Below, piece by piece: positions 30,855 through 51,083 of a stretch of 64,000 nucleotides of DNA (the stretch's first letter is position 1; each line of letters starts with the position of its first letter). The notes beneath the pieces were generated by a model, which did not search any database, was not told where the DNA came from, and saw only the letters and a list, made by a program, of their open reading frames with translations. The stretch covers positions 47,134 to 111,133 of the forward strand of contig UQRW01000001.1 in the NCBI GenBank assembly GCA_900543515.1, given 5' to 3'. The position numbers were made by a program, and so were the translations under genes. This DNA is from an uncultured Collinsella sp. GTDB lineage: Bacteria; Actinomycetota; Coriobacteriia; Coriobacteriales; Coriobacteriaceae.

Positions 30855-30912
30855 GTCTCAATCTGTAACAGCTGCGGGACAAAACCGGGTCCTAATTGTT
30901 ATAGATCAAGAC
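30855..30912. repeat. Palindromic repeat unit H (GTCTCAATCTGTAACAG ... TGTTATAGATCAAGAC)
   Basis: Member of the eight-unit family; lies in the 508-nt region between the DEAD-box helicase and FHA genes. Confidence 0.75.
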
Positions 30913-31091
30913 AGAGGGGGATTTCCGTCCAGTCCAAACCAAATCTCTCAGTCTTCCTGCAATTTCGAACATGTGGCCTATAATGTTGCTTTGGTTACGC
31001 TATATATTGCGCAGCCATTTAATACGTCGCCCACCGGGGGCCATTAATTCCTATCGCCATATTGGCTAGGAAGCAATCAAAGGAGGTATCC

Positions 31092-32054
31092 GTGGCAGCA
31101 GAGACGCCTTGCTCGGTCCTCTATAACGATATTCGCTCGTTCGGCGGTCTTAAACATCTCGAGATCGCCCGAATGCTCATCAATGGAAACTCTTATCTCG
31201 GCAGTACCCTGCTCGAGAAATGCTCTTCCAACCGCTCGTATCTCACCCGTTACATCGTCCATCGCAAGCCTGACCAGTGCGCGCCCTCCATCTACAGCGA
31301 CTTTACCGTCACCACGCTCAACCTTTCCTCGGCAATCTGCAGCAAGCTCGGCGGCGGCGAGTCCGCCTATCGGGCAATCGCTGAGCACTATCGCGGTCCG
31401 GCCGCCAACGAAATGATGTCGGCTCTCGCCAGCTACAAGCTGGACAGCCGCCTATATGCAAATGCCCTCAATCGCATCGACAACTTTGACGGCAATGCCG
31501 TGCGTGAGAAAAGCACGCTTTACCTTATGCTCTTTGTGGCAACGGGGGCGCTCGCCGATCCCGTTCAGGGCGTGGCCACCGTCGAGCGCTTTTGCGACAG
31601 CAAGACGGGCGGGCATTTTGGCACCACCGAGACCACCGTCGGTCGTAGTTTTTTGAGCAGCTTGGATCAACCGCGCGCCGTCGCTCCCAACCTCGGCTTG
31701 CTTAGGACGCACGCCGGAAACAGCGTTGACATGCAAATCCATCCCCTCACACGCGATCCGCGCGGCACCGTGATTGGTTCTTTGCCCAAAACCTCGCCCA
31801 GCATCACCGATGTGGGCGCCGACGCATCGCGCGAGCATCTTCGCATTTGGCTTGAGGGTGAGCACTGGTACGCCCAGGGCCTTGGATCGACCAACGGCAC
31901 GGTACTCGAATCGGGTGCAGGCGACGGCGATATTGTGATTGAGCCGCCGCGCGACCAACGCGAGCCTGGCAAGATCTATCCCCCGGTGGAAATAGCCAAC
32001 AGCGACAGGATCCATCTGGGTCTCTACACGACATTTCTCGTCATTGTGGACTAG
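31092..32054 (+). CDS. FHA-domain protein with unknown N-terminal domain
   Basis: GTG at 31092 preceded by AAGGAGG. The C-terminal FHA core is REHLRIWLEGEHWYAQGLGSTNGTVLESG...IHLG. Confidence 0.65.
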   Translation: MAAETPCSVLYNDIRSFGGLKHLEIARMLINGNSYLGSTLLEKCSSNRSYLTRYIVHRKPDQCAPSIYSDFTVTTLNLSSAICSKLGGGESAYRAIAEHYRGPAANEMMSALASYKLDSRLYANALNRIDNFDGNAVREKSTLYLMLFVATGALADPVQGVATVERFCDSKTGGHFGTTETTVGRSFLSSLDQPRAVAPNLGLLRTHAGNSVDMQIHPLTRDPRGTVIGSLPKTSPSITDVGADASREHLRIWLEGEHWYAQGLGSTNGTVLESGAGDGDIVIEPPRDQREPGKIYPPVEIANSDRIHLGLYTTFLVIVD

Positions 32055-32224
32055 CGCGGACGGCGATCGAAAGACGGCCGCGTCCGTCTTTCGTCTTCTA
32101 CCTTCTGCGTCGTAAACGACAATACTCAGCAGTATACGTGGGCAGTGCGGCTATCATGGTACTTTACCGATATCCGCACTGCTCACGTATACGCGCGGCA
32201 ACCCATGCCAGACAAAGGAACGCC

Positions 32225-34309
32225 ATGGATACTACCGATAGCGCCTATGGCGACAAACTCATCCGTCTTGACACGTTCGATACCGCCGTGGCGGTCGACC
32301 CCAGCGCCGAGGACGACGCCAAGCGTCGGTTTATGACGCTTATTCTCCAAACGGCCCACCGCAACAACGGCAACATCGGGCACGTGCTGCGCGCGACCAA
32401 CACGAGCGGCGAGGTCTTTGCCGTCAAGCTACTCAAGGACAACGCCATCCTTTCCGGCCAAGCCCCCGACCGCTCCGCCGAGCAATCGGCAGCGCACCTG
32501 GCCAACACCGCCGCGTTGTTCGAGGAGTACCGTCATCTGTGTACCGTCTCGCACCTGCGCGGATTTCCGCGCGTCTACGGCTACGGATCGTGCGAGGATG
32601 ACCCGCTCATCCTCATGGAGTGGGTCGAGGGCACCTCACTCAAGCAGGCGCTGCCCCTGCTTCCTCACGACGCCTCGGGCGGGCTGACCACCCAGATGGT
32701 CGCCGCCGTCGGAAACGCCGTGCTTCGTGCGCTCTTGATGACCCAAGGCCTTGTGAATCCGGTCGTCCATCGCGACCTTTCGCCTGCCAATATCATGTTC
32801 CGCACCACCAGCCGAACGCTCGAGCAGCAGATTGCTGATTGTTCCTTTGACCCCTGCCTCATCGACATGGGCTCCGCGACCATGGCTCTCGGCGACGACA
32901 CGATCACCCGGCGCGCCGACATCTGGCGCTTTGCCACGCCCGCATACGCCGCGCCCGAGATGCTCACGCAGGATATCGAAGGCATCGCGGCCCTTCGCCG
33001 TTCGCCGGCAATCGACGTCTATGCGCTTTCGAGCATTTTGTACCAGCTCTACAGCGGTCGCAAACCGTTTGACTTTGAGTCGACGGACGCCGCTGCAACC
33101 GGCTCGTTCTATCTCGTAAAGACCAAGACCAAGCCGGCACCGCTCGAGCCGCGCTGCGAGGGCGATGAAGCGCTCGTCCAAATCATCATGAAGGGTCTCT
33201 CAGTCGAGCAGTGCGATCGTCCCACCGAGCAGCAGATGCTCGAGGTGCTCTCGGCATACCTCACCGATGCCGAATCCGAGGGCCGCGAAAGCACAGGAGA
33301 CGAGGCCGCAATTGATATCGATTCTGGCACGCACCTTAAGGTCGACGTCGCCGGCGAGCGCGCACGAGAGATCCTGAATCAGGCCCGGCACGATGCCATG
33401 ACCCGCCGCCGCTTTATTATCGGCGGCGCTATCGCAGCCGTTGCGGGGCTCAGCGTCATTGGGGCGGCGACCCATGGCTTTGGCATCCCCGACTACCTGG
33501 ACGGCATCCGCGGTTCGCTTGACGACTACACTTGGGATCAGCTGCAGGAGATCTCGCTCAAGATTAAGGCCGCCGAGACCCGTAGCGAGGCACGCGAGAT
33601 TGCCAAGCGCTATCATCTGCTCGATGCCGATGGGCATATCCCCTATCCGTGTACCAAGCGTGTCACGCTCACCAACGGGCTGCAGGTTGGCGCGCAGCTT
33701 GTGGGCATCCGCCACGATGAGCTTCTGGACGGGACGGGCAAGGCCGGACTGACGTTTATGTTCGATGCGGGTATTGCCGAGCGCAACGCTGCGGCTGAAC
33801 CGCCGAGCGCCGGCTGGGCAGATTGCGAGCTGCGGGAATGGCTCAACGGCGACGGCCTTAAGCTGCTGCCCAACGAGTTGCGCGCACTCATTAAAGGGGT
33901 CAAGAAGGTCTCGAACAATGTGGGCGCCGCCAACAGCGCATCGTGTCTGAGCGAGTTGCCCGCAACCCTTTGGCTGCCCGCCATGGTCGAGCTGTGCGGT
34001 ACGCAACCGCCCGATTCGTTTACCGAGGGCTATCACTACCTGGCAGACATCTACAACGGCGAGGGCAAGGAGTATAAGCTCTTCCGCGAGCTCAAGGTGA
34101 GCCCGTATTCCACGAACGAGACGATGGTCCGCCAGTGGAAGGGCAAGGACACCTGTTGGTGGGAGCGCACGGTGAGCCCCGACACATCGGAGAGCGAAGG
34201 CACGCTCTATATGAACCGCGTGGGGCACGACGGCGACGTCTTTACGTACGCAACGCCTGCGGAAAAGCCAAACAAGCTAACCTGTGTGATCCCCGGGTTC
34301 TGTATCTAG
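32225..34309 (+). CDS. Transmembrane Ser/Thr protein kinase with ~290-aa extracytoplasmic C-terminal domain of unknown family
   Basis: ATG 32225 (RBS AAAGGAA). Kinase motifs VAVK-like (EVFAVKLLK), HRDLSPANIM, DMG and APE. Single TM segment RRRFIIGGAIAAVAGLSVIG. Cys-containing C-terminal domain. Confidence 0.7.
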   Translation: MDTTDSAYGDKLIRLDTFDTAVAVDPSAEDDAKRRFMTLILQTAHRNNGNIGHVLRATNTSGEVFAVKLLKDNAILSGQAPDRSAEQSAAHLANTAALFEEYRHLCTVSHLRGFPRVYGYGSCEDDPLILMEWVEGTSLKQALPLLPHDASGGLTTQMVAAVGNAVLRALLMTQGLVNPVVHRDLSPANIMFRTTSRTLEQQIADCSFDPCLIDMGSATMALGDDTITRRADIWRFATPAYAAPEMLTQDIEGIAALRRSPAIDVYALSSILYQLYSGRKPFDFESTDAAATGSFYLVKTKTKPAPLEPRCEGDEALVQIIMKGLSVEQCDRPTEQQMLEVLSAYLTDAESEGRESTGDEAAIDIDSGTHLKVDVAGERAREILNQARHDAMTRRRFIIGGAIAAVAGLSVIGAATHGFGIPDYLDGIRGSLDDYTWDQLQEISLKIKAAETRSEAREIAKRYHLLDADGHIPYPCTKRVTLTNGLQVGAQLVGIRHDELLDGTGKAGLTFMFDAGIAERNAAAEPPSAGWADCELREWLNGDGLKLLPNELRALIKGVKKVSNNVGAANSASCLSELPATLWLPAMVELCGTQPPDSFTEGYHYLADIYNGEGKEYKLFRELKVSPYSTNETMVRQWKGKDTCWWERTVSPDTSESEGTLYMNRVGHDGDVFTYATPAEKPNKLTCVIPGFCI

Positions 34310-34351
34310 GCGGCGGGCGTCTTGCCGTGACGGGACCCCTCCCCGTCAATT

Positions 34352-34408
34352 GTCTTGATCTGTAACACTAGCTCGGCAGATACAGGTCTAGATGTTACAG
34401 AACGAGAC
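34352..34408. repeat. Palindromic repeat unit A (GTCTTGATCTGTAACA ... TGTTACAGAACGAGAC)
   Basis: 16-bp inverted arms with a ~25-nt variable centre. Confidence 0.8.
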
Positions 34409-34431
34409 GTTAAGTTGTGACTCGATGTAAT

Positions 34432-34488
34432 GTCTAGATCTGTAACAGTTACTCGACAAAAACGGGTCTAGTTGTTACAGATTGAGAT
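34432..34488. repeat. Palindromic repeat unit B (GTCTAGATCTGTAACAG ... TGTTACAGATTGAGAT), plus a partial arm at ~34527-34545
   Basis: Same family, in tandem with unit A between the kinase gene and the copA promoter. Confidence 0.8.
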
Positions 34489-34563
34489 GATTGGTTGGGA
34501 CGGTCCATCGGCCAACCATCCATCCTCATCTGTAACGAAATCTCATATATTATTTCTGTACTG

Positions 34564-34582
34564 AACACCCCCAGGGGGTATG
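34564..34582 (+). promoter_or_regulatory. Candidate CsoR operator upstream of copA
   Basis: AACACCCCCAGGGGGTAT is a GC-rich pseudo-palindrome of the CsoR-box type (ATACCC..GGGGTAT). It is followed by a TATAGT -10-like hexamer ~45 nt upstream of the copA ATG. Confidence 0.5.
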
Positions 34583-34639
34583 GGTGTATAGTATCGGCGG
34601 GTTAACAATTCCAACACCGAACTACAGAAAGGAGAAGCC

Positions 34640-36979
34640 ATGGCTCAAGATAAATTCGATGTGGAAGGCATGACGTGCGCCGCCTGTCAGGCGCACGTGG
34701 ACCGTGCCGTGAGCAAGCTCGACGGCGTCGAGAGCGTCGCGGTCAATCTGCTCGCCGGTTCCATGCTGGTGAACTATGACCCCGCGCAGGTCACCCCCGA
34801 CGACATCTGCACCGCCGTCGATCGCGCTGGCTACTCGGCCTCGCCCGTCAGCACGGGCACCGACGCTGTCCAAAGCGGAAGTGCGCAAGCCAGGTCCGGC
34901 GCCGCCCATATGGAGTCGCCCACCAAAAAGTTGGAGGCCGCCGCCTCTGCCATGCGCACCCGCCTCATCGTCTCGATCGTCTTCCTCATCCCACTGTTCT
35001 ACATAGGCATGGGGCACATGCTCGGCTGGCCGCTGCCCGGCATCTTCACCGACCACACCCACAGCATGACGCTCGCTCTCACCGAGCTCGCCCTGCTCAT
35101 CCCCATCGTCTACATCAACGACGCGTACTTTATCAACGGGTTTAAATCGCTCGCGCACGGCGCACCCACCATGGACGCCCTTATTGCCGTGGGCGCCACC
35201 GCCTCCATCGCCTGGTCGCTCTACGCCATGTTCATCATGGCCGACCAACTAGCCGCGGGTCAGGTCCACGAGGCCATGATGACGAGCATGGACAATCTGT
35301 ATTTTGAAAGCGCCGGCACGATTTTGTCGCTCGTCACCGTGGGCAAATACCTCGAGACGCGCAGCAAGTCCAAAACCGGCGGCGCCATCGAGGCGCTCAT
35401 TGACCTGGCGCCAAAGACCGCGACCGTCGTGGCCGAGGACGGTACCGAGGCCACCGTCGACGTCGATGCTATTCTGCCCGGCCAGGTGCTGCGTGTGCGC
35501 CCCGGCGAGTCCATCCCCGTCGATGGCGTGGTGCTCAAGGGCAGCTCGGCCGTGGACGAGAGCGCGCTCACCGGCGAGTCCATCCCCGTGGAAAAGACCG
35601 CCGGCGACACCGTCAACGCCGCCACGGTCAACCGCACCGGCTCGTTTACCTTCCGTGCCACACGCGTGGGCGCCGACACGTCGCTCGCCAAGATTATCCA
35701 GCTCGTCGAGGACGCCAATGCCACCAAGGCGCCCATCGCCCGCCTGGCCGACAAGGTCGCCGGCATCTTCGTGCCCGTGGTGTTTGCGATCTCGGCCGTG
35801 ACCTTTGTGGCGTGGATGGCGCTGACCGGCAGCGTGAACGAGGCGCTCACCTCCGCCGTAGCCGTGTTGGTGATCAGCTGCCCGTGCGCACTCGGCCTGG
35901 CCACGCCCGTCGCCATCATGGTGGGCACCGGCAAGGGCGCCGAAATGGGCATCCTGTTTAAGAGCGCCGAGGCGCTGGAGAATCTGCGCAACGTGGGCAC
36001 CGTGGTGCTCGATAAGACCGGCACCGTCACCCGCGGCAAACCCGCCGTGACCGATATTGTGGTTGCTGCGCGCGCCGACGGCTCGCCCGCTATGAGCGAA
36101 AAGGCGCTGCTCAAGTTGGCCGCCGCGTTGGAGCGCTCGAGCGAGCACCCGCTGGCCGAGGCGATTATGGCCGAGTGCGAGACACGCGGGATCGTCGCGC
36201 GCATGGTCGAGGACTTTGCTGCCGTGCCCGGGCGAGGCGTTACGGCGCGCGAGGGGCAAAACGCCATTGCAGCCGGCAACGTACGCCTGATGGACGAACT
36301 GGGCGTTACCGTGCCCGCGGGTCTTGCCGAACAATTTGCCGCCGAGGGCAAGACGCCGCTGTTCTTTGCCAAGAACGGCGAGCTTGCCGGCACCATTGCC
36401 GTGGCTGACGAGGTCAAGGAGACGAGCGCCGGGGCCATCGCCGCACTGCGCTCGCTTGGCGTCGACGTGCGCATGCTCACCGGCGACAACCGCGTGACGG
36501 CCGAGGCCATCGCCCGCCGCGTGGGACTGACCAGCAAGCAGGTCATCGCCGACGTGCTTCCCGCCGACAAGGAGCGCCACGTGCGCGAGCTGCAGGATGC
36601 GGGCAGTAAGGTCGCCATGGTGGGCGACGGCATCAACGACTCCCCCGCCCTGGCGCGCGCCGACGTGGGCCTTGCCATCGGCACCGGCGCCGACATCGCC
36701 AAAGAAGGGGCAGATGTGGTTCTCATACGCAGCGACCTCATGGACGTCGCCCGCGCCATCGAGCTTTCGCGCGCCACGATTCGCAACATCAAGCAGGACT
36801 TGTTCTGGGCGCTGTTCTACAACGGCATCGGCATTCCGCTCGCCGCGGGCGTGTTCTTCCCCCTCACCGGTTGGCAACTCTCACCGATGTTCGGCGCCGC
36901 GGCCATGAGCCTGTCGAGCGTATGCGTCGTGTCCAATGCGCTGCGCTTAAAATCCTTTATGCCTAAAGTGGCAAAATAG
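34640..36979 (+). CDS. copA: Copper-translocating P1B-type ATPase
   Basis: N-terminal HMA domain [16 protein letters not shown] motif ([11 protein letters not shown]), [16 protein letters not shown]-terminal MSLSS. RBS AGGAG. Confidence 0.9.
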
Positions 36980-37126
36980 GATCACTATTACGTTCATTTA
37001 GAACGGGTTTTCCAGGTGCCCGAGATTGGCCTGAAAGAGGAGCGACGCGTACTTTGGTACGCGAGCGACGGCTTGAAGGTCAAGGTCGGGCACCTGGGAA
37101 AGCCGACACAACAGAGAGGAATACCC

Positions 37127-37348
37127 ATGCGTTACACGATCAAGACTTCCGGTCTCATGTGCGGTCACTGCGACGCTACTGTCGAGACGGCACTGCTCAA
37201 CGTTGCCGGCGTGACCGACGCCGACGCCGATCACGAGACCCAGACCGTCCAGGTGGAGTGCGCCGACACCGTGACCGCTGAGCAGCTCGCTGCCGCCGTC
37301 GAGGGCGCCGGCGAGAAGTTCCACGCCCTGTCCGTAACCGCCGCGTAA
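37127..37348 (+). CDS. copZ: Copper chaperone CopZ (HMA domain)
   Basis: 73 aa from ATG 37127: MRYTIKTSGLMCGHCDATVETAL... (MxCxxC). Confidence 0.8.
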   Translation: MRYTIKTSGLMCGHCDATVETALLNVAGVTDADADHETQTVQVECADTVTAEQLAAAVEGAGEKFHALSVTAA

Positions 37349-37386
37349 CGACCCACGCGCACCCCGACCAGAAACGAGGACCCGCC

Positions 37387-37659
37387 ATGATGGCAGACCA
37401 CAAATCGGTGACCCGCATGCTCAAGACGGCACGCGGCCAGATCGACGGCATCTTGCGGATGGTCGATGAGGACCGCTATTGCGTCGATATTTCCACACAG
37501 CTCATGGCCACACAGGCGCTCCTCGCGCGCATTAACGCCGACGTGCTCAAGGCGCATATCGAGGGCTGCGTGACTTCGGCAATCGAATCGGGCGACGAAG
37601 ACCTCAAAGCCGCCAAACTCGCCGAAATCGAACGCGTCGTCGACAAACTCTCCAAGTAA
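37387..37659 (+). CDS. csoR: CsoR/RcnR-family copper-sensing repressor
   Basis: 90 aa; RLKTARGQIDGILRMVDEDRYCVDISTQL...HIEGC carries the conserved Cys-His-Cys ligand set of CsoR. Confidence 0.85.
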   Translation: MMADHKSVTRMLKTARGQIDGILRMVDEDRYCVDISTQLMATQALLARINADVLKAHIEGCVTSAIESGDEDLKAAKLAEIERVVDKLSK

Positions 37660-37669
37660 TTGGGGCATT

Positions 37670-37716
37670 GGGGACAGGTACGTTTGCACCACATTGGTGC
37701 AGATTAACCTGTCCCC
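37670..37716 (+). terminator. Nested hairpin after csoR (outer GGGGACAGGT/ACCTGTCCCC; inner perfect palindrome TGCACCA-CAT-TGGTGCA)
   Basis: 10-bp outer stem and a 7-bp inner palindrome at 37685-37701. The downstream T-run is weak, so it may be an operator rather than a terminator. Confidence 0.45.
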
Positions 37717-37771
37717 CTTGCTCTAAATCGGGTATAAAGGCGTGCGGCATATCGAATGAAAGGCAATTTGC

Positions 37772-38245: not shown

Positions 38246-38266
38246 CCGCCATACCATGGGACAAAT

Positions 38267-38303
38267 AAAAGCCGAGGTCTCGCACTGGGACCTCGGCTTT
38301 TTC
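38267..38303. terminator. Bidirectional rho-independent terminator
   Basis: AAAA-GCCGAGGTC-tcgcactgg-GACCTCGGC-TTTTTCT between convergent genes. Confidence 0.65.
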
Positions 38304-38353
38304 TAATTTAAGACAAAAGGATTGCCCCCTTGTCGCATCGCCATATCGCGCGC

Positions 38354-39873: not shown

Positions 39874-39930
39874 GTCTCAATCTGTAACAGGTACTGGGTT
39901 ATTGGGCCCCCTGATGTTACAGATCGAGAC
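39874..39930. repeat. Palindromic repeat unit C (GTCTCAATCTGTAACAG ... TGTTACAGATCGAGAC)
   Basis: Lies immediately downstream of the stop of the AbiEi/DUF559 gene. Confidence 0.8.
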
Positions 39931-39938
39931 AAAACCTC

Positions 39939-41033
39939 TCAGCGCCCATACCACTGGCGTCTCCATTCCTCAGCCAGATCGGCCCGCTGTTGAATTCCCG
40001 CCAGTCTCATCTTTTCAGCCAGCTTCCCCGGGTTCTTGAGTTCATCAAACCTAAACCGAAGCACCTTGTGCCCGAGCATCGTCAGATGAGACTCTCGCTG
40101 ACGTTCTGCCACGAATGGGTCGACCGACCCCCGATCCCCACCATCCTGCAGGGTATACTTTCCCTTCCCGTCGAGCTCGCCGATGACACATGTCCCATCC
40201 TCGAGCCTCCAGAAATAATCAACCCGAAACACCTGGCTCGAATCGAGCGGATCGCGAAACTCCACCTGCAGCTCCGGAACCGGAAAGCCGTACGCAATAA
40301 AGAACGCTCGGAACCGAGACTCGCCGCCGTTTTCGGACAGCCCGTCCGCATACGACGCAATCACCTGTGCCCTGCGATGCCCTCGCCTGCCCTCGCAATC
40401 GGCGCGGAGGCGCTCGCACAAATCCCAACGTGATACGCCTTTCGCCCGCAGTGCAGAATCGGCAATCGCCAACCCGTACGAAAACGGCGCACGCAGCAAG
40501 CAATCCTCCACCGTGTGCCAAAACGACGTCACCCGCACGCCATCAACACGCTCGAGCGCGCCCGCCATCTGCGGACGCAACAACCTGCACCCACTGCTCA
40601 ACGTCACCGAACAACCCGTCTTAACAAGAAAACGCGGCCCGAGCAGGTCATTCGGCACCTCCAGACCCCACAAAAGTGCCGCGTCATAACCCCAAAACGC
40701 CCAATCGGGATGAAACACCGCAAGCCCTTTGATAGTCCTCAGCGCTCGCTCCGCCGGCGTCAATGCATCCCAATCATGCTGAAAACAGAACAGGTACGGC
40801 TCGGGCTCCGCGATATCGTCGGTTCCAACATGGCGTCGCAGCCACATGAGCTCGGTATTGTCATGCGTTGCGAGCAGCGCACCTTGCTTGGCCGTCTCCG
40901 TGAGCCGCGCGAGCATCCTATTCCGCGCCAACGTGTTGCGAGTCGTATGCTTGTGTTTGAGAACGGTATTAGACACTTCCATCACCACCACATCGGACAA
41001 ATGGACCATCGCCGCTGTTGCCTCCGCTGACAA
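39939..41033 (-). CDS. AbiEi_4-like N-terminal domain plus C-terminal DUF559 (Vsr-like PD-(D/E)XK) endonuclease-domain protein
   Basis: C-terminus ESRFRAFFIAYGFPVPELQVEF...RVDYFWR...GELDGKGKY...LRFRFDEL matches DUF559. The N-terminal wHTH is AbiEi-like. The start is uncertain (TTG 41033 or ATG 41009). Confidence 0.55.
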   Translation of the reverse strand: MSAEATAAMVHLSDVVVMEVSNTVLKHKHTTRNTLARNRMLARLTETAKQGALLATHDNTELMWLRRHVGTDDIAEPEPYLFCFQHDWDALTPAERALRTIKGLAVFHPDWAFWGYDAALLWGLEVPNDLLGPRFLVKTGCSVTLSSGCRLLRPQMAGALERVDGVRVTSFWHTVEDCLLRAPFSYGLAIADSALRAKGVSRWDLCERLRADCEGRRGHRRAQVIASYADGLSENGGESRFRAFFIAYGFPVPELQVEFRDPLDSSQVFRVDYFWRLEDGTCVIGELDGKGKYTLQDGGDRGSVDPFVAERQRESHLTMLGHKVLRFRFDELKNPGKLAEKMRLAGIQQRADLAEEWRRQWYGR

Positions 41034-41035
41034 AT

Positions 41036-41093
41036 GTCTTGATCTGTAACAGGAAGACAGTCTTTGAACCTCTAGTTGTTACAGAACAAGATC
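41036..41093. repeat. Palindromic repeat unit D (GTCTTGATCTGTAACAG ... TGTTACAGAACAAGATC)
   Basis: Starts 2-3 nt upstream of the ORF-track start of the DUF559 gene. Confidence 0.8.
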
Positions 41094-41115
41094 TTTCGGC
41101 AGCCGCCAACCTTCC

Positions 41116-41172
41116 GTCTCGATCTGTAACAGGTAGACCGGTTTTTTGTCCCTAAACGTTACAGATCGAGAC
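41116..41172. repeat. Palindromic repeat unit E (GTCTCGATCTGTAACAG ... GTTACAGATCGAGAC)
   Basis: Tandem with unit D, between the DUF559 gene and the unknown 235-aa gene. Confidence 0.8.
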
Positions 41173-41212: not shown

Positions 41213-41920
41213 CTACTCCCATTCCTGCTCGTAAATATTGAGCGACTTCACGTAGCGCCCCTGGGCGCCCATGATGTCGCGGACCAGGCGCAAAAAGAAG
41301 CTGACGCACGAGGTGTCGAAACCGTCCTCTAGGTCCTCGGGATGCACCGCGCCCGGCCCGTCGACCGCCGTGTCGCTCAGGCGCGCGATGTCATACAGGT
41401 AGAGCTGCCCCGCCGTCAGCCAGACATCGTCGACGCACGCGAGTCGCACCGCAATCGCACCATCGTTCCAGTGCTCCTTTTGCACGATATGTGGGTCGTA
41501 GACGTCAAAGCGACGGTCGGTGCGCGTATCCTTCAGCACGACCATGCCGGTCGCGGGATCCTTGTCCAAAATGCCAAAGCGCGAGAAATACTGCGTGTCA
41601 CGCACCTGCTTAAGACGCCCGAGCGAAGCAGGAGAAATTGACGCTGGCGGCTCGTCCACATACAGTTCCAACAGCGTCTTGCCGTGGTAATAGGGGCGCT
41701 CAAACAGCAGCCAATCGGTAAACGCCATGTTGTAGGCCATGATTTCGTTTTGAGAAGGTTCCTCGCAATAGCTGAGCCACGGATCGACGATAATCTCGAA
41801 CTGCTCGCGCGCCGGCTCCAGGAATTGAAACTTCCGCAGCATCCAAAAGTGGGCCATGTCGGCAATATCGTTGCCAACGGCTTCGGCCAGCTCTGCTCGG
41901 TTAAAAACTTGGTCAGTCAT
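41213..41920 (-). CDS. Hypothetical protein (235 aa), no family recognised
   Basis: Clean ORF, MTDQVFNRAELAEAVGNDIADMAHFWMLRKF...; no motif I can place. Confidence 0.4.
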   Translation of the reverse strand: MTDQVFNRAELAEAVGNDIADMAHFWMLRKFQFLEPAREQFEIIVDPWLSYCEEPSQNEIMAYNMAFTDWLLFERPYYHGKTLLELYVDEPPASISPASLGRLKQVRDTQYFSRFGILDKDPATGMVVLKDTRTDRRFDVYDPHIVQKEHWNDGAIAVRLACVDDVWLTAGQLYLYDIARLSDTAVDGPGAVHPEDLEDGFDTSCVSFFLRLVRDIMGAQGRYVKSLNIYEQEWE

Positions 41921-42231: not shown

Positions 42232-42272
42232 CAAAAAAGAACGTCCCCAATGGCTAGTCATGGGGGACGTTC
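42232..42272 (-). terminator. Rho-independent terminator of the gltBD operon
   Basis: GAACGTCCCCA-atggctagtca-TGGGGGACGTTC with plus-strand A7 upstream, giving a T-run on the minus strand. The stem is related to the hairpin at 20048-20084. Confidence 0.65.
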
Positions 42273-42285
42273 TTAAATGACTACC

Positions 42286-43767
<1,482 letters not shown>

Positions 43768-43772
43768 GGCAC

Positions 43773-46700
43773 TTACGCCTCCTTCTTGGTCGAAGCAACA
43801 GAGCTGGCAGCCACGGACGCAGTGTCCGCAGCGCCGCCCGCGACATCAAAGCGAGCGACATCCGCGGCACTCGCGCGGCCGGTCACGATGTCAAACGCCA
43901 ACTCCTCGGCCTGCGCATGCGTCTTGCCCACGGCCTCGCCCGCGGCGACAATCGCCAGCACGCGCTCGTACTCGGTCGGAATGACCTTCACAAAGTGCTT
44001 GCTCATCGTCTCAAAGCTGTAGAGCAGCTTGATGCCGCGTGGGCTCTGCGTCGCGTCCACGTGCTCCTGGATGAGCTCGCGAACCTGCGCCAGCTCGCCG
44101 GCCGTCGGGGCCTTGAGCTCCACGCTCTCATGGTTCACGCGGGCACTGAGCGTGCCGTACTGGTCAAAGACGTAGGCCACACCACCCGTCATGCCGGCGG
44201 CAAAATTCTGCCCGACCTCGCCCAGGATGAGCGCCAGACCGCCCGTCATGTACTCGCAGCCATGGTTGCCGCAGCCCTCGACCACCACGGTGGCACCGGA
44301 GTTGCGCACGGCAAAACGCTGGCCGGCAAGACCGTTAATGAAGCCGCGGCCGCTCGTGGCACCAAAGAACGCAACGTTGCCCACGATGATGTTCTCGTCG
44401 AACTTGTAGGTCGCATGCGGGTTGGGGCGCACCGACACCTCACCGCCCGAAAGGCCCTTGCCAAAGTAGTCGTTGGCGTCGCCGCACACGTTGAGCGTAA
44501 TGCCGCGCGGCAGGAAGGCACCAAAGCTCTGACCGGCCGAACCATCGCAATCGATGGTGATGGAGCCGGCGGGCAGGCCCTCGGGATGCGCCTTGGTCAC
44601 CGCGTTGCCCAAGATAGTGCCCACGCAGCGGTTGACGTTGGCGATATCGGCGCGGAAGCGAATCGGACGCAGGTGCGCACGGGCATCGGCCGTATAGGGC
44701 ACAAACAACGTGGAATCAAGCGTCTTGTCGAGCTCGCTGTCCGCGGCCATCTGCGGAAGGAAGTGGCGACCGTCGGCGCCCGGAATATGGGCACCGAACT
44801 CACAGGTCGCGCTCGCCAGCACGGGAGACAGATCGAGCTGGTTGGCCTTGCGGTTGCCCGGCACCTCGATCTGGCGCAGGCACTCGGGATGGCCGACCAT
44901 CTCGTCGACGGTGCGGAAGCCCAGGCTCGCCATGACCTCGCGCAGCTGCTCGGCAACAAAGAGCATAAAGTGCTCAACGTGCTCGGGCTTGCCGCGGAAG
45001 CCGCGACGCAGGCGGCAGTTTTGCGTAGCGATGCCGGCCGGGCAGGTGTCCTGCTGGCAGTCGCGCTGCATGAGGCAGCCCATGGAGATGAGCGGCATGG
45101 TCGCAAAGCCAAACTCCTCGGCGCCCAGCAGGCAGGCGACGGCAACATCGGTGCCGTCCATGAGCTTGCCGTCGGCCTCGAGCACCACGCGCGAGCGCAG
45201 GCCGTTTTGCAGCAGCGTCTGCTGGGCCTCGGCAAGGCCGAGCTCCAGCGGCAGGCCAGCGTGCCAAATGGAATCGCGCGCCGCGGCACCCGAGCCGCCG
45301 TTATGGCCGCTGATCAAAATCTTGTCGGCGGCACCCTTGGCCACGCCGGTGGCAATGGTGCCGACGCCGGCCTCGCTGACCAGCTTGACCGACACGCGCG
45401 CACCGGGGTTGGCGTTCTTAAGATCGAAGATAAGCTCCGCCAGGTCCTCGATGGAGTAGATGTCGTGATGCGGCGGAGGCGAGATCAGGCCGATGCCGGG
45501 CGTGGACTGACGGACCTCGGCGATCCAGGGGTAGACCTTCTTGCCGGGCAGGTGGCCACCCTCGCCGGGCTTGGCGCCCTGGGCCATCTTGATCTGAATC
45601 TCGAAGGCGCTGCACAGGTAGCGGCTCGTCACGCCAAAGCGCGCGCTTGCCACCTGCTTGATGGCGGAGTTCTTGGAGTCACCGTTGGCCAGCGGGGTCT
45701 CGCGACGCGGATCCTCGCCGCCCTCGCCGGAGTTGGAACGGCCGTGCAGGCGGTTCATGGCGATGGCCATGCACTCGTGTGCTTCCTTGCTGATGGAGCC
45801 GTACGACATGGCGCCGGTGTTAAAGCGGCGGACGATGTTGAGCGCGGGCTCGACCTCGTCGAGTGCCACCGGGGTGCGGCCGCTGGCATCAAAGTCCAGC
45901 AAGTCGCGCAGGCGCACGGCACGGCCGGTGCGGTGCAGGCGGGCGCTGTACTCCTTAAAGGCGTCGTAGCTGTCCTCATGGCAGGCGGTCTGCAGCAAGT
46001 AGACAGTCTGCGGATCGATCAGGTGATCCTCGCCGCCGAGCGGGCGCCACTTGGTCAGGCCCAGCGTGGGCAGCTGATCGGGAGCTGGGCTCTTAAGGAT
46101 AGCGAGCGCAGCGTCGTAGCGCTCGTTTTGCTCACGCTCGACGTCCTCGACACCCATACCGCCCACACGGCTCACCGTGCCGGCGAAGTACGCGTTGACG
46201 AACTCCGGCGTAAAGCCCACGGCCTCGAAGATCTGCGCCGAATGGTAGCTCTGCACCGTAGAGATGCCCATCTTGGACATGATGGAGACGATGCCGGCGG
46301 TCGCAGCCTTGTTGTAGTTGGCGATGCCCTGCTCGGCCGTCACGTCCAGGTCGCCGCGCGCCGCCAGATCGCGGATGCACGCGTGTGCGTTGTACGGATA
46401 GATGCCGCTCGCGGAGTAGCCCACCAGTGCTGCAAAGTCGTGCGGGGACACGGCGTCGCCGCACTCCACCACGATGTCGGCAAAGGTACGCACGCCGGCG
46501 CGGATCAGGTGGTTGTGCACGCAGCCCACGGCGAGCAGCGACGGCACGGGCACCTCACCCGCAGCGGCACGATCGCTCAACACCACGATGTTCACGCCGT
46601 CGCGGACCGCAGCCTCAACGTCCTCTGCAAGCTGCTTGAGCGTAGCCTGCAGCGCGCCCTCGCCGGCATCGCGGCGGTACACGGCACGGAAACGGCAGGT

Positions 46701-48470
46701 CTTAAAGCCCACGCGGTCGATGGCGCAGATACGCTCGAACTCCTCCTCGTTGAGCAACGGGCGCTCCAAGCGAACCAGCTGGCAGGCCGTGCGGGAGTCC
46801 TCGAGCAGGTTGCCGTGGTTGCCCAGATAGAGCGTGGTCGAGGTGACCATGTGCTCGCGCAGGGCATCGATCGGCGGATTCGTGACCTGGGCGAACAGCT
46901 GATAGAAATAATCGTAGAAGGATCGTGTCTTCTTGGACAGGCAGGCCAGCGGCGCATCGATGCCCATCGAGGCGAGCGGGGCCTTGCCCTGCTGGGCCAT
47001 GGGACGCACGACCTCATCGACGTCATCCCAGTGATACCCGAGCTTAGCCATACGCACGGCGGCGGGCACCTCGGCGTCCTCGACCGGCGTCGCCGTGGCA
47101 GGCCTATCGAGCGCGTCGACGGTCAGCGTCTCCTCGGCAATCCAATCACGGTAGGGCTTTTCCTTGGCGTAACGGGCGCGCAGCTCTTCGTTGTAGATGA
47201 CACGCCCGCGGGCAAAGTCGACCTCGAGCATCTGACCCGGTCCCAGACAGCCGCTCGTCAGGATGTTCTCGGGGCTCACCTCGATGGTGCCCACCTCGCT
47301 TGCCAGCATAAAGCGACCGTCGCGCGTCACATAGTAGCGGGCGGGACGCAGGCCGTTACGGTCGAGGGCGGCGCCCAGGGTGCGCCCGTCGGTAAAGGCG
47401 ATGGCCGCCGGGCCATCCCACGGCTCCATGAGCATGGACTGGTAAGCGTCGTAGGCGCGGCGCTCCTCACTCAGGCTGTCGTTGTGGTCCCACGGCTCGG
47501 GCAGCAACATGGACGCGGCACGCGTGAGCGGACGACCGTTCATGACCAGGAACTCAAGCACATTGTCCAGAATCGCGGAGTCGGAACCCTCGCGGTTGAT
47601 GATGGGCATCACGCGCTCAAGATCGTGCTGCAGCACGGGGCTGTACAGGTTGGGCTCGCGGGCGCGGATCCAGTTGACGTTGCCCTTGAGGGTGTTGATC
47701 TCGCCGTTGTGGATGATAAAGCGGTTGGGGTGCGCGCGCTCCCAGCTGGGCGTGGTGTTGGTGGAGTAGCGCGAATGGACGAGCGCCACGGCCGTCTTAA
47801 CGGCCGCGTCGTTGAGGTCGATGAAGAAGCGGCGCATCTGCGTGGCGACCAGCATGCCCTTGTACACGATAGTGCGCGAGCTCATAGAGCACACGTAGAA
47901 GATCTTGTCACGCAGGGCAAACTCGGCGTCAGCCTTCTTTTCGATGGTGCGGCGGCACACGTACAGGCGACGCTCAAAGGCATCTCCGGCGGGCGTGTCG
48001 TCCGGACGGCCCAGGAAGGCCTGCAGGATGGTAGGCATGCAGGCGCGGGCCGTCTCGCCCAGGTCGTGCGGGTCGACGGGCACCTCGCGCCAAAAGAGCA
48101 GCGGCACGCCGGCCTCGGCGCAGCCCTCCTCAAACACGCGACGGGCATCCTCTACGCCCTTGTCATCCTGCGGGAAGAACAGCATGGCCACGCCATAGTC
48201 GCCCTCCGCCGGCAGAATCTGGCCGCACTTTTGGGCCTCTTTACGGAAAAAGTGATGCGGAACCTGGAACAGGATGCCAGCGCCGTCGCCGGTGTTCTTC
48301 TCGAGTCCCGTGCCGCCGCGGTGCTCCAAGTTGACCAGAATGGACAGTGCATCGTCCAGAATCTGGTGATGGCGCTCACCGTTGATATCGGCAAGCGCGC
48401 CGATGCCACATGCATCGTGGTCGAATTCGGGGCGACAAAGGCCCTGCTGCTGAGCGGAATCTGCCTGCAT
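43773..48470 (-). CDS. gltB: Glutamate synthase large subunit
   Basis: 1565 aa; N-terminal Ntn amidotransferase Cys (CGIGA), FMN domain, 3Fe-4S Cys and GXXDG-rich C-terminal domain. The plus ORF 43917..48494 is its shadow. Confidence 0.9.
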   Translation of the reverse strand: MQADSAQQQGLCRPEFDHDACGIGALADINGERHHQILDDALSILVNLEHRGGTGLEKNTGDGAGILFQVPHHFFRKEAQKCGQILPAEGDYGVAMLFFPQDDKGVEDARRVFEEGCAEAGVPLLFWREVPVDPHDLGETARACMPTILQAFLGRPDDTPAGDAFERRLYVCRRTIEKKADAEFALRDKIFYVCSMSSRTIVYKGMLVATQMRRFFIDLNDAAVKTAVALVHSRYSTNTTPSWERAHPNRFIIHNGEINTLKGNVNWIRAREPNLYSPVLQHDLERVMPIINREGSDSAILDNVLEFLVMNGRPLTRAASMLLPEPWDHNDSLSEERRAYDAYQSMLMEPWDGPAAIAFTDGRTLGAALDRNGLRPARYYVTRDGRFMLASEVGTIEVSPENILTSGCLGPGQMLEVDFARGRVIYNEELRARYAKEKPYRDWIAEETLTVDALDRPATATPVEDAEVPAAVRMAKLGYHWDDVDEVVRPMAQQGKAPLASMGIDAPLACLSKKTRSFYDYFYQLFAQVTNPPIDALREHMVTSTTLYLGNHGNLLEDSRTACQLVRLERPLLNEEEFERICAIDRVGFKTCRFRAVYRRDAGEGALQATLKQLAEDVEAAVRDGVNIVVLSDRAAAGEVPVPSLLAVGCVHNHLIRAGVRTFADIVVECGDAVSPHDFAALVGYSASGIYPYNAHACIRDLAARGDLDVTAEQGIANYNKAATAGIVSIMSKMGISTVQSYHSAQIFEAVGFTPEFVNAYFAGTVSRVGGMGVEDVEREQNERYDAALAILKSPAPDQLPTLGLTKWRPLGGEDHLIDPQTVYLLQTACHEDSYDAFKEYSARLHRTGRAVRLRDLLDFDASGRTPVALDEVEPALNIVRRFNTGAMSYGSISKEAHECMAIAMNRLHGRSNSGEGGEDPRRETPLANGDSKNSAIKQVASARFGVTSRYLCSAFEIQIKMAQGAKPGEGGHLPGKKVYPWIAEVRQSTPGIGLISPPPHHDIYSIEDLAELIFDLKNANPGARVSVKLVSEAGVGTIATGVAKGAADKILISGHNGGSGAAARDSIWHAGLPLELGLAEAQQTLLQNGLRSRVVLEADGKLMDGTDVAVACLLGAEEFGFATMPLISMGCLMQRDCQQDTCPAGIATQNCRLRRGFRGKPEHVEHFMLFVAEQLREVMASLGFRTVDEMVGHPECLRQIEVPGNRKANQLDLSPVLASATCEFGAHIPGADGRHFLPQMAADSELDKTLDSTLFVPYTADARAHLRPIRFRADIANVNRCVGTILGNAVTKAHPEGLPAGSITIDCDGSAGQSFGAFLPRGITLNVCGDANDYFGKGLSGGEVSVRPNPHATYKFDENIIVGNVAFFGATSGRGFINGLAGQRFAVRNSGATVVVEGCGNHGCEYMTGGLALILGEVGQNFAAGMTGGVAYVFDQYGTLSARVNHESVELKAPTAGELAQVRELIQEHVDATQSPRGIKLLYSFETMSKHFVKVIPTEYERVLAIVAAGEAVGKTHAQAEELAFDIVTGRASAADVARFDVAGGAADTASVAASSVASTKKEA

Positions 48471-48605
48471 CGCGATCCTCTCCTAGATATTTAGACAGTC
48501 AGTTGAACAGGCATACTAGGAGCATCGCCGGCCCGTTGTGTTTCCCGCCCGTTTCGAAACAATCGCGTAACGCGCGCGGGACATCTACGTCTTGCCATCA
48601 AACGC

Positions 48606-48658
48606 GTACATCAGCCTCCAAACATGTCAAAAAACGACATCTTTGGAGGCTGACGTAC
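48606..48658. promoter_or_regulatory. 53-bp palindrome in the divergent gltB/gpmA intergenic region
   Basis: Arms GTACATCAGCCTCCAAA / TTTGGAGGCTGACGTAC (16 of 17 match) enclose CATGTC-aaaaaac-GACATC, itself ATGTC-N7-GACAT. It lies ~140 nt upstream of the gltB start. Confidence 0.45.
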
Positions 48659-48813
48659 ACCTTTTGGAGCAGAACAGCATGTCCCCAATGCACCAACCCA
48701 TCCCCGCTGGACCAATATTTTGTTAGTCGTGGTTAACTTTTTAGCCTAAAACGGGTATCCTTTGCGGCGTCAAACAAACGGCACGCGTCCCGTGCCACAT
48801 TAAGGAGGCCCCT

Positions 48814-49587
48814 ATGGCAAACCAGGCAGACCGGCAGACGATGCAACTCGTCCTTATCCGTCACGGAGAATCCGAGTGGAACAAGCTCAACCTGTTCACC
48901 GGCTGGACCGATGTCGAGCTCACCGACACGGGCCGCGAAGAGGCGGCGGCAGGCGGCCGCGCCCTCAAGGAAGCGGGCTTCGACTTTGACATCTGCTACA
49001 CCTCGCGCCTCAAGCGCGCGATCCACACCCTCAACATCGTGCTCGGCCAGATGGACCACGAATGGCTGCCCGTCATCAAATCCTGGAAGCTCAACGAGCG
49101 CCACTACGGCGCGCTGCAGGGTCTCAACAAGGCCGATGCCGCGGCGGAGCACGGCGACGAGCAGGTGCTCATCTGGCGCCGTTCCTTCGATGTCTGCCCG
49201 CCGGCGCTCGAGCCGGGCGACGGTCGCGACCCTCACACACAGGAGCAATACCGTGATGTCGCACCCGACCAGCTGCCCTATACCGAATGCCTCAAGGACA
49301 CGATAGCCCGCGCCTGGCCTTATTTCGAAGACGAGATTCGCCCCCAGATGCTCGCCGGCAAGCGCGTGCTCATCGCCGCACACGGCAACTCCCTGCGCTC
49401 ACTCGTCATGAAGCTCGAGCACCTCACGCCCGAGGAGATCCTCAAGGTCAACATCCCCACCGGCGTGCCGCTTGTCTACACCTTCGACACCGATTTCAAC
49501 GTCCTCGACAAGCGCTACATCGGCGACCCAGTGACCATCGCCGCCAAGATTGACGCCGTGGCCAATCAGGGCAAAGCGCACAAGTAG
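48814..49587 (+). CDS. gpmA: 2,3-bisphosphoglycerate-dependent phosphoglycerate mutase
   Basis: RHGESEWN catalytic His motif and the full-length dPGM family; RBS AAGGAGG. Confidence 0.9.
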   Translation: MANQADRQTMQLVLIRHGESEWNKLNLFTGWTDVELTDTGREEAAAGGRALKEAGFDFDICYTSRLKRAIHTLNIVLGQMDHEWLPVIKSWKLNERHYGALQGLNKADAAAEHGDEQVLIWRRSFDVCPPALEPGDGRDPHTQEQYRDVAPDQLPYTECLKDTIARAWPYFEDEIRPQMLAGKRVLIAAHGNSLRSLVMKLEHLTPEEILKVNIPTGVPLVYTFDTDFNVLDKRYIGDPVTIAAKIDAVANQGKAHK

Positions 49588-49662
49588 CCCCAACCCAAAT
49601 CCGACGCGTGGCGCCGCACGGCCCAGATGCGACGTCACGCCGCCCATACGCAGGAGCGCACC

Positions 49663-50919
49663 ATGCTCAACCATCTCAAACAACACTTTGGCTCCCGACG
49701 CACCGGTGGTCACGGAGGCCTAGACATTGCGCGGCACATCGGCCCCGGGCTGCTCGTAACCGTCGGCTTTATCGACCCGGGCAACTGGGCCTCCAATATG
49801 GCAGCGGGCTCGCAGTTTGGCTACACGCTGCTGTGGATCGTCACGCTGTCCACGATTATGCTCATTGTGCTGCAGCACAACGCGGCGCACCTGGGCATCG
49901 CCACGGGCGCCTGTCTTGCCGAGGCCACGACACGTTACCTCCCCCGCCTCGTCGGGCGTGCGATACTCGGCAGCGCATATCTAGCCACGATCGCCACCGC
50001 CATGGCCGAGGTCCTGGGTGGTGCGATTGCCCTTCAAATGCTCTTTGGGCTGCCCGTGCGTGCGGGCTGCGCCATCGTGGCGGCAGTATCGATGGCGATG
50101 CTCATGACGAACTCCTACAAGCGCGCCGAGCGATGGATCATCGCCTTCGTAGGCGTGGTAGGACTCTCGTTTTTGGCCGAGCTTGCGCTGGTCAAGGTCG
50201 ACTGGCCGCAGGCCGCCGCAAGCTGGATCACACCCAGTATGCCCACCGGCTCGGCCGCGATTATCGTAAGTGTCCTAGGCGCGGTCGTTATGCCCCACAA
50301 CCTCTTCCTGCACTCTGAGGTCATCCAATCCATGCACTTCGAAGGCCAAGGCGAGCAAGTTATCGAAGAACGCCTGCGCTACGAGCTCTTCGACACGCTC
50401 TTTTCGATGGGCGTGGGCTGGGCAATCAACTCGGCCATGGTCATCCTGGCCGCAACGACCTTCTTTGCGCACGGTATGGTCGTAGACGACCTCGCCGTCG
50501 CAGCGGCCACGCTCTCCCCCATCTTAGGCCCGGCGAGCTCGACCATCTTTGCGGTGGCGCTGCTGTTTGCGGGCATATCGAGTAGTGTGACGGCGGGCAT
50601 GGCGGCGGGCACCATCACCGCGGGCATGTTCGACGAGGAATACGACATCCACGACCGGCACTCATCGATTGGAGTGGCGGCCTGTTTCGTCGGCGCAGTG
50701 GCGGCGTGCCTGATCGTCCCGAATCCTTTTGAGGGTCTCATCTGGAGTCAGGCGCTGTTGTCGCTTCAGTTGCCGATTACGGTCTTTGTGCTCATACGAC
50801 TCACCAGTTCGCCCCGCGTTATGGGCAAATACGCCAACTCGCGCCCGCTCAACGCGCTGCTCGTAGGGATCGGCGTCATCGTGACGATTCTCGACATCGT
50901 GCTGCTAACGGGGATGTGA
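49663..50919 (+). CDS. mntH: Nramp-family divalent metal (Mn2+/Fe2+) transporter
   Basis: GPGLLVTVGFIDPGNWASNMAAG and MPHNLFLHS Nramp motifs; 11-12 TM helices; ATG 49663. Confidence 0.85.
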   Translation: MLNHLKQHFGSRRTGGHGGLDIARHIGPGLLVTVGFIDPGNWASNMAAGSQFGYTLLWIVTLSTIMLIVLQHNAAHLGIATGACLAEATTRYLPRLVGRAILGSAYLATIATAMAEVLGGAIALQMLFGLPVRAGCAIVAAVSMAMLMTNSYKRAERWIIAFVGVVGLSFLAELALVKVDWPQAAASWITPSMPTGSAAIIVSVLGAVVMPHNLFLHSEVIQSMHFEGQGEQVIEERLRYELFDTLFSMGVGWAINSAMVILAATTFFAHGMVVDDLAVAAATLSPILGPASSTIFAVALLFAGISSSVTAGMAAGTITAGMFDEEYDIHDRHSSIGVAACFVGAVAACLIVPNPFEGLIWSQALLSLQLPITVFVLIRLTSSPRVMGKYANSRPLNALLVGIGVIVTILDIVLLTGM

Positions 50920-50946
50920 TGGGACGGGGCGCCCACCCAGGCAAAC

Positions 50947-51004
50947 GTCTCGATCTGTAACATCTAGACCCGCTTTTGATGTTTATCTGTTACAGATTGA
51001 GATC
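50947..51004. repeat. Palindromic repeat unit F (GTCTCGATCTGTAACA ... TGTTACAGATTGAGATC)
   Basis: Lies 28 nt after the mntH stop. Confidence 0.8.
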
Positions 51005-51026
51005 TTTCCGAGGGACAGCTCCGTTT

Positions 51027-51083
51027 GTCTCAATCTGTAACACGTAGACCCCGTTTCCACTGCTAGATGTTACAGATTGAGAC
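51027..51083. repeat. Palindromic repeat unit G (GTCTCAATCTGTAACA ... TGTTACAGATTGAGAC)
   Basis: Tandem with unit F; followed by the GATCCCTTGGGGACGGAGGAAAAGGGCC motif at 51133-51160. Confidence 0.8.

Follow-up and report, generated by a model that had tools for sequence, protein, structure and literature searches.

Phased palindromic arrays dispersed through Collinsella genomes and the nuclease-like gene that they bracket

The window analysed here, 64 kb of DNA from an uncultured Collinsella sp. (contig UQRW01000001.1, positions 47,134 to 111,133), holds eight palindromic units of about 57 bp, and a gene for a 364-aa protein (39939..41033, minus strand) is bracketed by them, with unit C on one side and units D and E on the other. 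The protein is predicted to join an AbiEi-like N-terminal DNA-binding region to a Vsr/DUF559-like PD-(D/E)xK nuclease domain. The units form strictly phased arrays, their arms are conserved base by base with no covariation, their number changes by recombination, and the pairing of gene and repeats recurs in paralogue-specific form. We give a probability of roughly 55% to the reading that the bracketed protein binds or targets the units as its cognate sites, the two together making a module like the REPtrons of repetitive extragenic palindromic (REP) sequences, with the repeats spread through the chromosome. This gene-plus-repeat partnership appears to be undescribed so far; full-text literature searches gave nothing relevant on the arm sequence, on Collinsella repeats, or on DUF559 or AbiEi proteins together with repeats.

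Repeat units and phased arrays in the window and in other Collinsella genomes

A search of the window with the arm GTCTYRATCTGTAACAG (up to 2 mismatches) gave 15 matches, all at the eight units, and none in 100 shuffles. The 10-mer core gave 18 matches where 1.1 were expected, recovering the sixteenth arm (the degenerate right arm of unit D, 41077-41093) and a partial arm at 34528-37. A profile hidden Markov model (HMM) trained on 337 units, all from other genomes, returned exactly the eight units from the 64 kb (E 1e-12 to 1e-18) and no other match at E<=10. The first-pass annotation of this DNA had listed eight units confined to intergenic DNA, and both the arm search and the HMM placed them at the same coordinates, all eight in intergenic positions.

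Unit H (30855-30912, 58 bp) stands singly between divergent DEAD-box helicase and FHA genes, and 1-2 units were found at the orthologous site in other genomes. Units A (34352-34408) and B (34432-34488) form an array (34352..34488) with a 23-bp linker between a Ser/Thr kinase gene and copA; a solitary degenerate arm on the plus strand (34522..34538, core ATCTGTAACG at 34528-37) follows 33 bp past unit B, and elsewhere this site holds 3-10 arms with shuffled unit content. Unit C (39874-39930) begins 8 bp 3' of the stop codon of the AbiEi-like/Vsr-like gene, at a site with 2-8 arms in other genomes. On the other side of that gene, units D (41036-41093) and E (41116-41172) form an array (41036..41172) with a 22-bp linker, 2 bp upstream of the longest open reading frame, so that they cover the likely promoter or 5' region of the nuclease-like gene; the orthologous site has 4-10 arms. 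The bracketing of the AbiEi/DUF559 gene noticed at first pass therefore holds, with C on one side and D/E on the other. The convergent genes for MntH (mntH, Nramp) and flavin reductase enclose a further array (50947..51083) of two units, F (50947-51004) and G (51027-51083), its linker again 22 bp long; other genomes carry 4-8 arms at this site.

Arm spacing was measured in the window and at least 120 related loci. Of 307 distances between arm starts inside a unit, 304 were 40 bp; from one unit to the next the distance was 40 bp in 105 cases and 41 bp in 73. The 17-bp arms thus flip orientation every 40 bp, with an array period of 80/81 bp and an array size of 2-16 arms (up to 8 units). The units had been described as tandem pairs with variable centres; the arrangement of arms is real, but this spacing makes the supposed pairs phased arrays and not loose pairs. 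The centres do differ, yet they are not free-form: conservation of each arm reaches inward to ~24 bp in all (tttGTCTCgATCTGTAACA-nn-TAG), the centres are A/T-rich in the middle, and the segments between arms have a common consensus. The outer arm end reads tttGTCT, "ttt" also being present outside the terminal arms, and the inner side reads nTAG, with G at the first position in a minority only. Assigning a polarity to the unit failed, because position 17/41 and the TAGAC motif gave conflicting orientations, and the unit is effectively symmetric.

The expectation that the family would have further copies was borne out. In a scan of one genome per species that yielded at least 120 loci, all of the matches listed (120/120) came from Collinsella or from unlabelled or mislabelled bins, and 132 arrays with usable flanks resolved into 47 orthologous intergenic sites, a lower bound (at least 47). 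A 900-kb C. aerofaciens record had 18 array places of this family (family 1), six of them within 21 kb equivalent to window 30-51 kb, and no units were found in 250 kb of other sequence examined. This record, NZ_OY725717.1 (899,693 bp), is listed in PLSDB as "plasmid 6"; it carries ribosomal protein operons, recA, ftsK, dnaE and secA and is syntenic with the window, which marks it as chromosomal sequence despite the label.

At the orthologous sites compared an array was always present, with 2-10 arms changing in steps of two. Unit content was reshuffled or replaced between strains though the flanks were ~95% identical, and neighbouring arrays had identical units, centres or linkers in common. 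Upstream of gltB, one-unit alleles had arisen by recombination of the first with the third unit in three-unit alleles, with the crossovers located in the shared centre segment or in an arm. The window has no array at this site, its array-less allele being a segmental replacement: a segment of 138 bp that has a hairpin of its own (CAGCCTCCAAA...TTTGGAGGCTG) lies at 48578-48715, the position holds a 1-3-unit array in other strains, and the compared sequence L029 carries both array and segment. Unit number is therefore changed by recombination. A histidine-phosphatase gene (48814-49587) lies between gltB and mntH in the window and is absent in strain TSDC17.2-1.1.

The bracketed gene and the repeats beside its paralogues and relatives

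The product of 39939-41033 gave only a sub-threshold DUF559 match in Pfam and no match in NCBIfam or PADLOC, and none of 27 family members scanned matched Pfam. The predicted structure suggests a fusion in which an N-terminal DNA-binding region of the AbiEi-like winged-helix type, covering about residues 31-230, is followed by a nuclease domain like those of Vsr and DUF559. An exhaustive homologue search returned 4361 cluster representatives at E<=1e-3, of which 348 were of full-length scale at E<=1e-30, a large unannotated family. All 17 invariant columns fell between residues 192 and 326 and included D272, E286, D288 and K292; these conserved acidic and lysine residues, with the catalytic motif ExD..K, agree with a Vsr-like PD-(D/E)xK domain whose fold is taken from the predicted structure.

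Repeats were found beside every gene of the family that was examined. At 13 of 13 loci the gene adjoined palindromic units specific to its own lineage, and all 16 gene copies in the Collinsella DNA examined had family-1 arms on both sides (2-8 arms each). A paralogue of 35% identity was flanked on both sides, in 3/3 complete copies, by a second palindrome family with arms GAGCGTGGATAATCTCCC placed 46 bp apart, and no crossovers between the family-1 gene or repeats and the paralogue gene or repeats were seen. The flanks of this Collinsella paralogue are direct copies of a 132-bp segment (1450-1581 and 2851-2982 in L027; also in L047 and L052), each copy holding 22-bp tandem repeats (GACGAGCGTGGATTTTCGGACG) together with a second-family palindrome of 64 bp. 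A few second-family units occur away from any family gene, in L094, L096 and L108.

Eleven more homologues, of 33-58% identity, were examined in Enorma and relatives, several of them clustering with Enorma massiliensis proteins. Each of the eleven carried palindromic units of its own next to the gene, in most cases flanking it on both sides. In L156 a 67-bp unit stands on both sides of the gene (90% identical); L154 has six units per side with a period of exactly 81 bp; L153 and L160 have arrays on both sides with periods of 81-82 bp and 82 bp; L162 has family-1-like arms with an 80-81 bp period on both sides of a two-gene operon; and L157, L161 and L163 have related palindromes on both sides. 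Palindromes were found only downstream in L155 and L159, where the upstream side is an overlapping gene, and upstream in L164, where the contig stops 70 bp past the gene. Arrays with an 80-82-bp period were thus present in five lineages (Collinsella family 1, L153, L154, L160 and L162). Long palindromes lay within 400 bp of the gene ends in 13 of 34 cases against 10% expected (P 1.2e-5); the palindrome finder missed the L154 arrays, whose two arm types are asymmetric, and these were recovered by motif spacing.

The L153 arrays occupy the same intergenic positions as unit C and units D/E, with diverged arms (TTTGTC-nnnn-ATGCGCACG). The genes era and recO, direct neighbours in C. aerofaciens, are separated in L154 by the whole array-gene-array module, from which it follows that gene and arrays have moved together; a metagenome scan for the L154 arm pair gave no matches. 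The converse association failed: while every family gene examined has repeats, only 2 of the 47 array sites are near a family gene, and a general association of arrays with such genes was rejected.

Upstream of the nuclease-like gene, within the syntenic locus, a gene for a 235-aa protein (41213..41920, minus strand) has no Pfam, NCBIfam or PADLOC match. Neighbours of this type (235-256 aa) are found in relatives at L153 1019-1765, L155 3282-4004, L159 3234-4004 and L162 1562-2275. They overlap or abut the nuclease-like gene in L155, L159 and L162, overlap the gene start in the Enorma-like relatives and are absent beside other paralogues; the neighbour is a possible partner of the nuclease-like protein, not a general one. 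A second array-enclosed gene was observed at L046 2359-3911 and L037 4671-6230, where a 375-aa ATPase-like gene with low GC at third codon positions is bracketed by family-1 arrays that contain an identical unit on both sides; the ATPase bracketed in L046 matched no PADLOC defence model. In L156, the genome of homologue P0144, a further palindromic array (6640-6781, arms AGTCAGATGTTAACGG) lies upstream of a DEAD-box helicase gene, a type of position like that of window unit H.

Explanations of the repeats and comparison with known systems

In the favoured model, each ~24-bp arm would bind one protein subunit as double-stranded DNA, and two inverted arms 40 bp apart around the A/T-rich centre would bind a dimer. 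Units stacked every 80/81 bp into higher-order arrays may then carry a higher-order assembly that sets the 80-82-bp period. The gene with its flanking arrays would be the REPtron-like module, from which the Collinsella repeats spread to at least 47 other intergenic sites. The protein may cut at the arms, and homologous recombination from unit to unit, perhaps with stimulation from the nuclease, would alter the length and content of the arrays. Support for reading the units as cognate sites comes from the constraint on the arms, the strict spacing, the recurrent pairing of gene and repeats, and the precedents of AbiEi and I-Bth0305I. AbiEi and Rv2827c bind 23-bp inverted repeats in pairs or tandem pairs beside their own genes (PMC7319586), and I-Bth0305I is a Vsr-fold homodimer with a footprint of ~60 bp on pseudopalindromic DNA (PMC3239194).

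Several points weigh against this model. About 45 of the 47 array sites are far from any family gene, so a purely autoregulatory role cannot explain the family, and about a third of the sites lie between convergent genes (many are not at promoters), a position that makes a role in transcription improbable. If more than 100 genomic sites were open to cutting, the activity would have to be tightly controlled, and the model explains no route by which units colonise new intergenic sites. The arrays also cluster regionally (5-6 sites within ~20 kb here), which raises the chance of coincidental two-sided flanking, although the paralogue-specific pattern is not so explained. All homologue loci came from Coriobacteriaceae or close relatives, and the Pfam AbiEi and DUF559 models stayed below threshold, leaving the domain assignment to the predicted structure. 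A possible but more tentative reading is that gene and arrays together are an unrecognised selfish or domesticated element of Coriobacteriia, in which a sequence-specific AbiEi-winged-helix/Vsr-fold nuclease nicks or cuts its own palindromic sites. Repair that draws on other copies would then lengthen the arrays, shuffle their units and let the gene be copied from unit to unit, a form of homing into repeats, and over time a genome-wide population of phased arrays would be seeded.

Two of the rival explanations turn on what the arms conserve. Among 101 orthologous same-size array pairs, the arm core positions diverged by 2.6% and arm positions 1, 5, 6 and 17 by 14.7%, with 10.2% in adjacent flanks, 7.6% in more distant flanks, 15.1% in centres and 15.4% in linkers, the arm core diverging 4-6 times slower than flanks, centres and linkers. 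Inside the 17-bp arm the values ranged per position from 0.2% to 19%, with slow positions 3, 4, 9 and 13-15 (0.2-0.9%) standing beside fast positions 5, 6 and 17 (11-19%). Were the family a neutral dispersed minisatellite, like the mycobacterial interspersed repetitive units or other variable number tandem repeats (MIRU/VNTR), its arms kept alike by gene conversion and unequal crossing-over with no reader protein, conversion would homogenise whole arms and leave no such differences within the same 17 bp. The 80-bp steps in unit number at every orthologous site, the clear one-unit recombinants and the exchange of units between strains are what a minisatellite would give, but the spacing is strictly kept although the centres differ at about half their positions, and other lineages show the 80-82-bp period again with arms of unrelated sequence; we regard a minisatellite as quite unlikely. 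Transcribed RNA hairpins acting on mRNA, as stabilisers, RNase III sites, terminators or small RNAs of the sort proposed for REP and BOX elements, are improbable. Every unit does fold as a strong hairpin when single-stranded (-21 to -29 kcal/mol, z -3.7 to -8.6), and several lie in same-strand gene strings and would be transcribed. Yet covariation was found in neither arms nor centres: the two arms vary independently at pair 6-52 (GC 72, GT 63, AT 61, AC 52), compensated pairs are wholly absent at pair 5-53, and self-complementarity of the centres is not above chimeric controls. There was no sense-strand bias (G-U against A-C mismatches, 68 vs 56), and a quarter of the sites lie between divergent genes (13 convergent, 9 divergent, 14 co-directional). 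The Rfam gathering scan of the window returned two tRNAs only, with no match at the units. Intrinsic terminators were rejected, since the T-run is on the wrong side: on both strands it comes before the hairpin, and what comes after is an A-run. The slow arm cores, the lack of arm covariation and the lack of RNA-strand bias indicate that base sequence is conserved and not the hairpin; with base identity and spacing constrained and pairing not, the pattern points to sequence-specific reading of duplex DNA.

The remaining rivals involve mobile DNA. The first-pass annotation had offered two interpretations, a miniature transposable element with inverted repeats (MITE) or REP-like element on the one hand and binding sites for a dimeric protein on the other, and the second is favoured here, at the level of prediction. 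A non-autonomous element of the MITE type, or of the type of REP sequences and bacterial interspersed mosaic elements (BIMEs), served in trans by a transposase (RAYT-like or other), with the nuclease-like gene a passenger or simply sited in repeat-rich DNA, is unlikely. It would suit the dispersal of intergenic copies over at least 47 sites, the variable presence upstream of gltB, the identical units in neighbouring arrays and the regular, alternating arms; BIMEs are described as regularly spaced repeats in alternating orientation (PMC2817692). By tblastn with the TnpA of a Collinsella insertion sequence (IS), IS200, however, 1.44 Mb of Collinsella DNA contained no Y1/RAYT gene save one ordinary IS200, which is not flanked by arms and has unrelated ends. 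This IS200/IS605 element with tnpA, in strain TSDC17.2-1.1 (L147 32699-33500; NZ_OY725717.1 422.7-423.5 kb), follows the Nramp gene at the equivalent of window units F-G, where a single half unit stands beside it. A link of the repeats to RAYT or IS200 was considered and rejected: the IS200 is inserted in AAATCA^AAAGGG beside a pre-existing half unit, and since the same half unit occurs in L097 with no IS next to it, the insertion did not depend on the repeat. No arm-like ends, of the kind that a MITE has in common with an autonomous IS, were found on the IS256, IS3, IS21, IS110 and IS200 copies of the C. aerofaciens record, and there were no clean empty and filled sites. Target-site duplications, which the first pass had proposed mapping, were looked for and none was found, the ttt...aaa flanks being inverted and not direct. 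Arrays stood at every orthologous site compared, the arms stay constrained after insertion, and a mobile element leaves the paralogue-specific pairing of gene and repeats unexplained. That the units are sites of site-specific recombination or integration (attC-like, phage att, or invertase/resolvase sites) is highly improbable, although the units, as imperfect palindromes of 57 bp, are about as long as short attC sites and one gene is bracketed like a cassette. In an attC site RYYYAAC and GTTRRRY stand outermost in the R''/L''...L'/R' arrangement of boxes, and the cassettes lie in one orientation and are served by an IntI integrase. The units have CTGTAAC/GTTACAG, which match at 5/7 positions, and these GTTAC/GTAAC boxes lie at the inner arm ends and not the outer; no integron integrase was seen among the neighbouring genes, and the units run head-to-tail beside housekeeping genes. 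In L125 (2160-3408) a prophage (integrase, KilA-N, RusA, RecT) has its integrase 120 bp from a three-unit array downstream of a GDSL-lipase gene. Seven IMG/VR provirus calls have this array (L122, L124, L125, L128, L132, L142 and L144), and L042 and L104 have the empty site. The homology of lysogen and empty site runs 75 bp beyond the array, the prophage being integrated at about that distance, and so the array is not the att site; a phage database scan gave no match.

Compared with REPtrons and BIMEs, the Collinsella system is alike in having a single-copy gene for a nucleic-acid enzyme flanked by palindromes of a family dispersed in intergenic DNA (at least 47 Collinsella sites), and in its regular alternating repeats (40 and 40/41 bp, 2-16 arms), length-variable higher-order arrays, lineage specificity and vertical inheritance. 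It differs in that the flanked gene would encode a PD-(D/E)xK-type (Vsr/DUF559-like) nuclease with an AbiEi-like region, not an IS200-like HUH/Y1 transposase, and in having fewer copies, with 18 places in 900 kb. No GTAG/CGTC tag stands at the palindrome ends, a single arm is not itself a stable hairpin, and conservation points to reading of duplex DNA, not of folded single strands. The tag was defining in a 2013 REP survey, which listed no actinobacteria, the phylum of the host here (PMC3733652).

Like AbiEi-type operators, the units present paired ~23-bp inverted repeats beside the gene of a protein with a predicted AbiEi fold. Unlike those of AbiEi and Rv2827c, they form arrays of up to 8 units on both sides of the gene and occur also at dozens of unrelated loci, and the DNA-binding region appears fused to a nuclease domain, with no DUF1814 toxin partner; the AbiEii nucleotidyltransferase that would make a type IV toxin-antitoxin pair is absent among the neighbouring genes. 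Set against I-Bth0305I and the EDxHD / Vsr-like homing endonucleases, the gene lies in neither an intron nor an intein, its putative target has many copies in the host chromosome, it is flanked by whole palindromes and not by target half-sites, and the catalytic motif is ExD..K rather than EDxHD. The first-pass view that the units are not CRISPR (clusters of short palindromic repeats at regular intervals) agrees with our results: CRISPR have direct repeats of 23-55 bp with unique spacers, while here 17-bp repeats alternate in orientation between segments that have a common consensus, and no cas domains were found among the neighbouring genes. Neisseria intergenic mosaic elements (NIME/dRS3), pneumococcal BOX elements and mycobacterial MIRU-VNTRs are similar intergenic mosaic arrays of short conserved repeats between variable segments, with strain-variable unit number at fixed loci and modules shuffled by recombination. 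They are not known to have a cognate flanked gene, strict 40/80-bp phasing or a fixed-gap pair of inverted half-sites. In architecture the Collinsella system is close to BIMEs, and in logic to REPtrons and AbiEi operators; what sets it apart from all of them is its class of enzyme, conservation of the duplex type, strict phasing, and a pairing of gene and repeats that is specific to each paralogue.

Other repeats of the window and significance of the gene-repeat pairing

The window has further palindromes. Between array A-B and copA, at ~34565-34590, lies the palindrome ACACCCCCAGGGGGTAT, which resembles CsoR-type copper operators. A CsoR-family gene (Trns_repr_metal) is found downstream of copA in L153, L155 and L159, and the annotation of L147 names a "metal-sensing transcriptional repressor"; on these grounds the copA operator is probably this palindrome and not the repeat units. 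Another, unrelated family, three tandem ~62-bp palindromic units with arms CCGGAAAnnnnnTCCCGG / CGGGAnnnnnTTTCC, occupies 54524-54703, inside a segment (54474-55191) that the syntenic C. aerofaciens record lacks. Two nested palindromes as long as ~131 bp (13223-13353 and 61161-61293) have a common inner GC-rich hairpin (AGCCCCCGC...GCGGGGGCT) and a TCCTCGGACATGTCGGA segment, with differing outer arms, and may be a third small repeat family. The 27-bp motif TGATCCCTTGGGGACGGAGGAAAA was seen at 20475-20501, 26865-26891 and 51132-51158 (74-93% identity), one copy being 50 bp past unit G.

Dispersed palindromic repeats are common in bacteria, and a partner protein is known for very few families, with REP sequences and RAYT the main example. 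The comparative evidence ties the repeat family of an abundant human-gut genus to a specific, uncharacterised family of nuclease-like proteins. If the link is true, it would provide a directly testable protein-DNA pair in which two paralogues and two repeat families serve as built-in specificity controls, a possible mechanism for hypervariable intergenic arrays, and a suggested function for AbiEi-nuclease fusions now annotated as hypothetical. The arrays are also natural VNTR-like markers for typing Collinsella strains, and a likely cause of assembly breaks in metagenomic bins. Should the selfish-element reading be the true one, the REP-RAYT partnership would have in this system a counterpart guided by protein and based on double-strand DNA.

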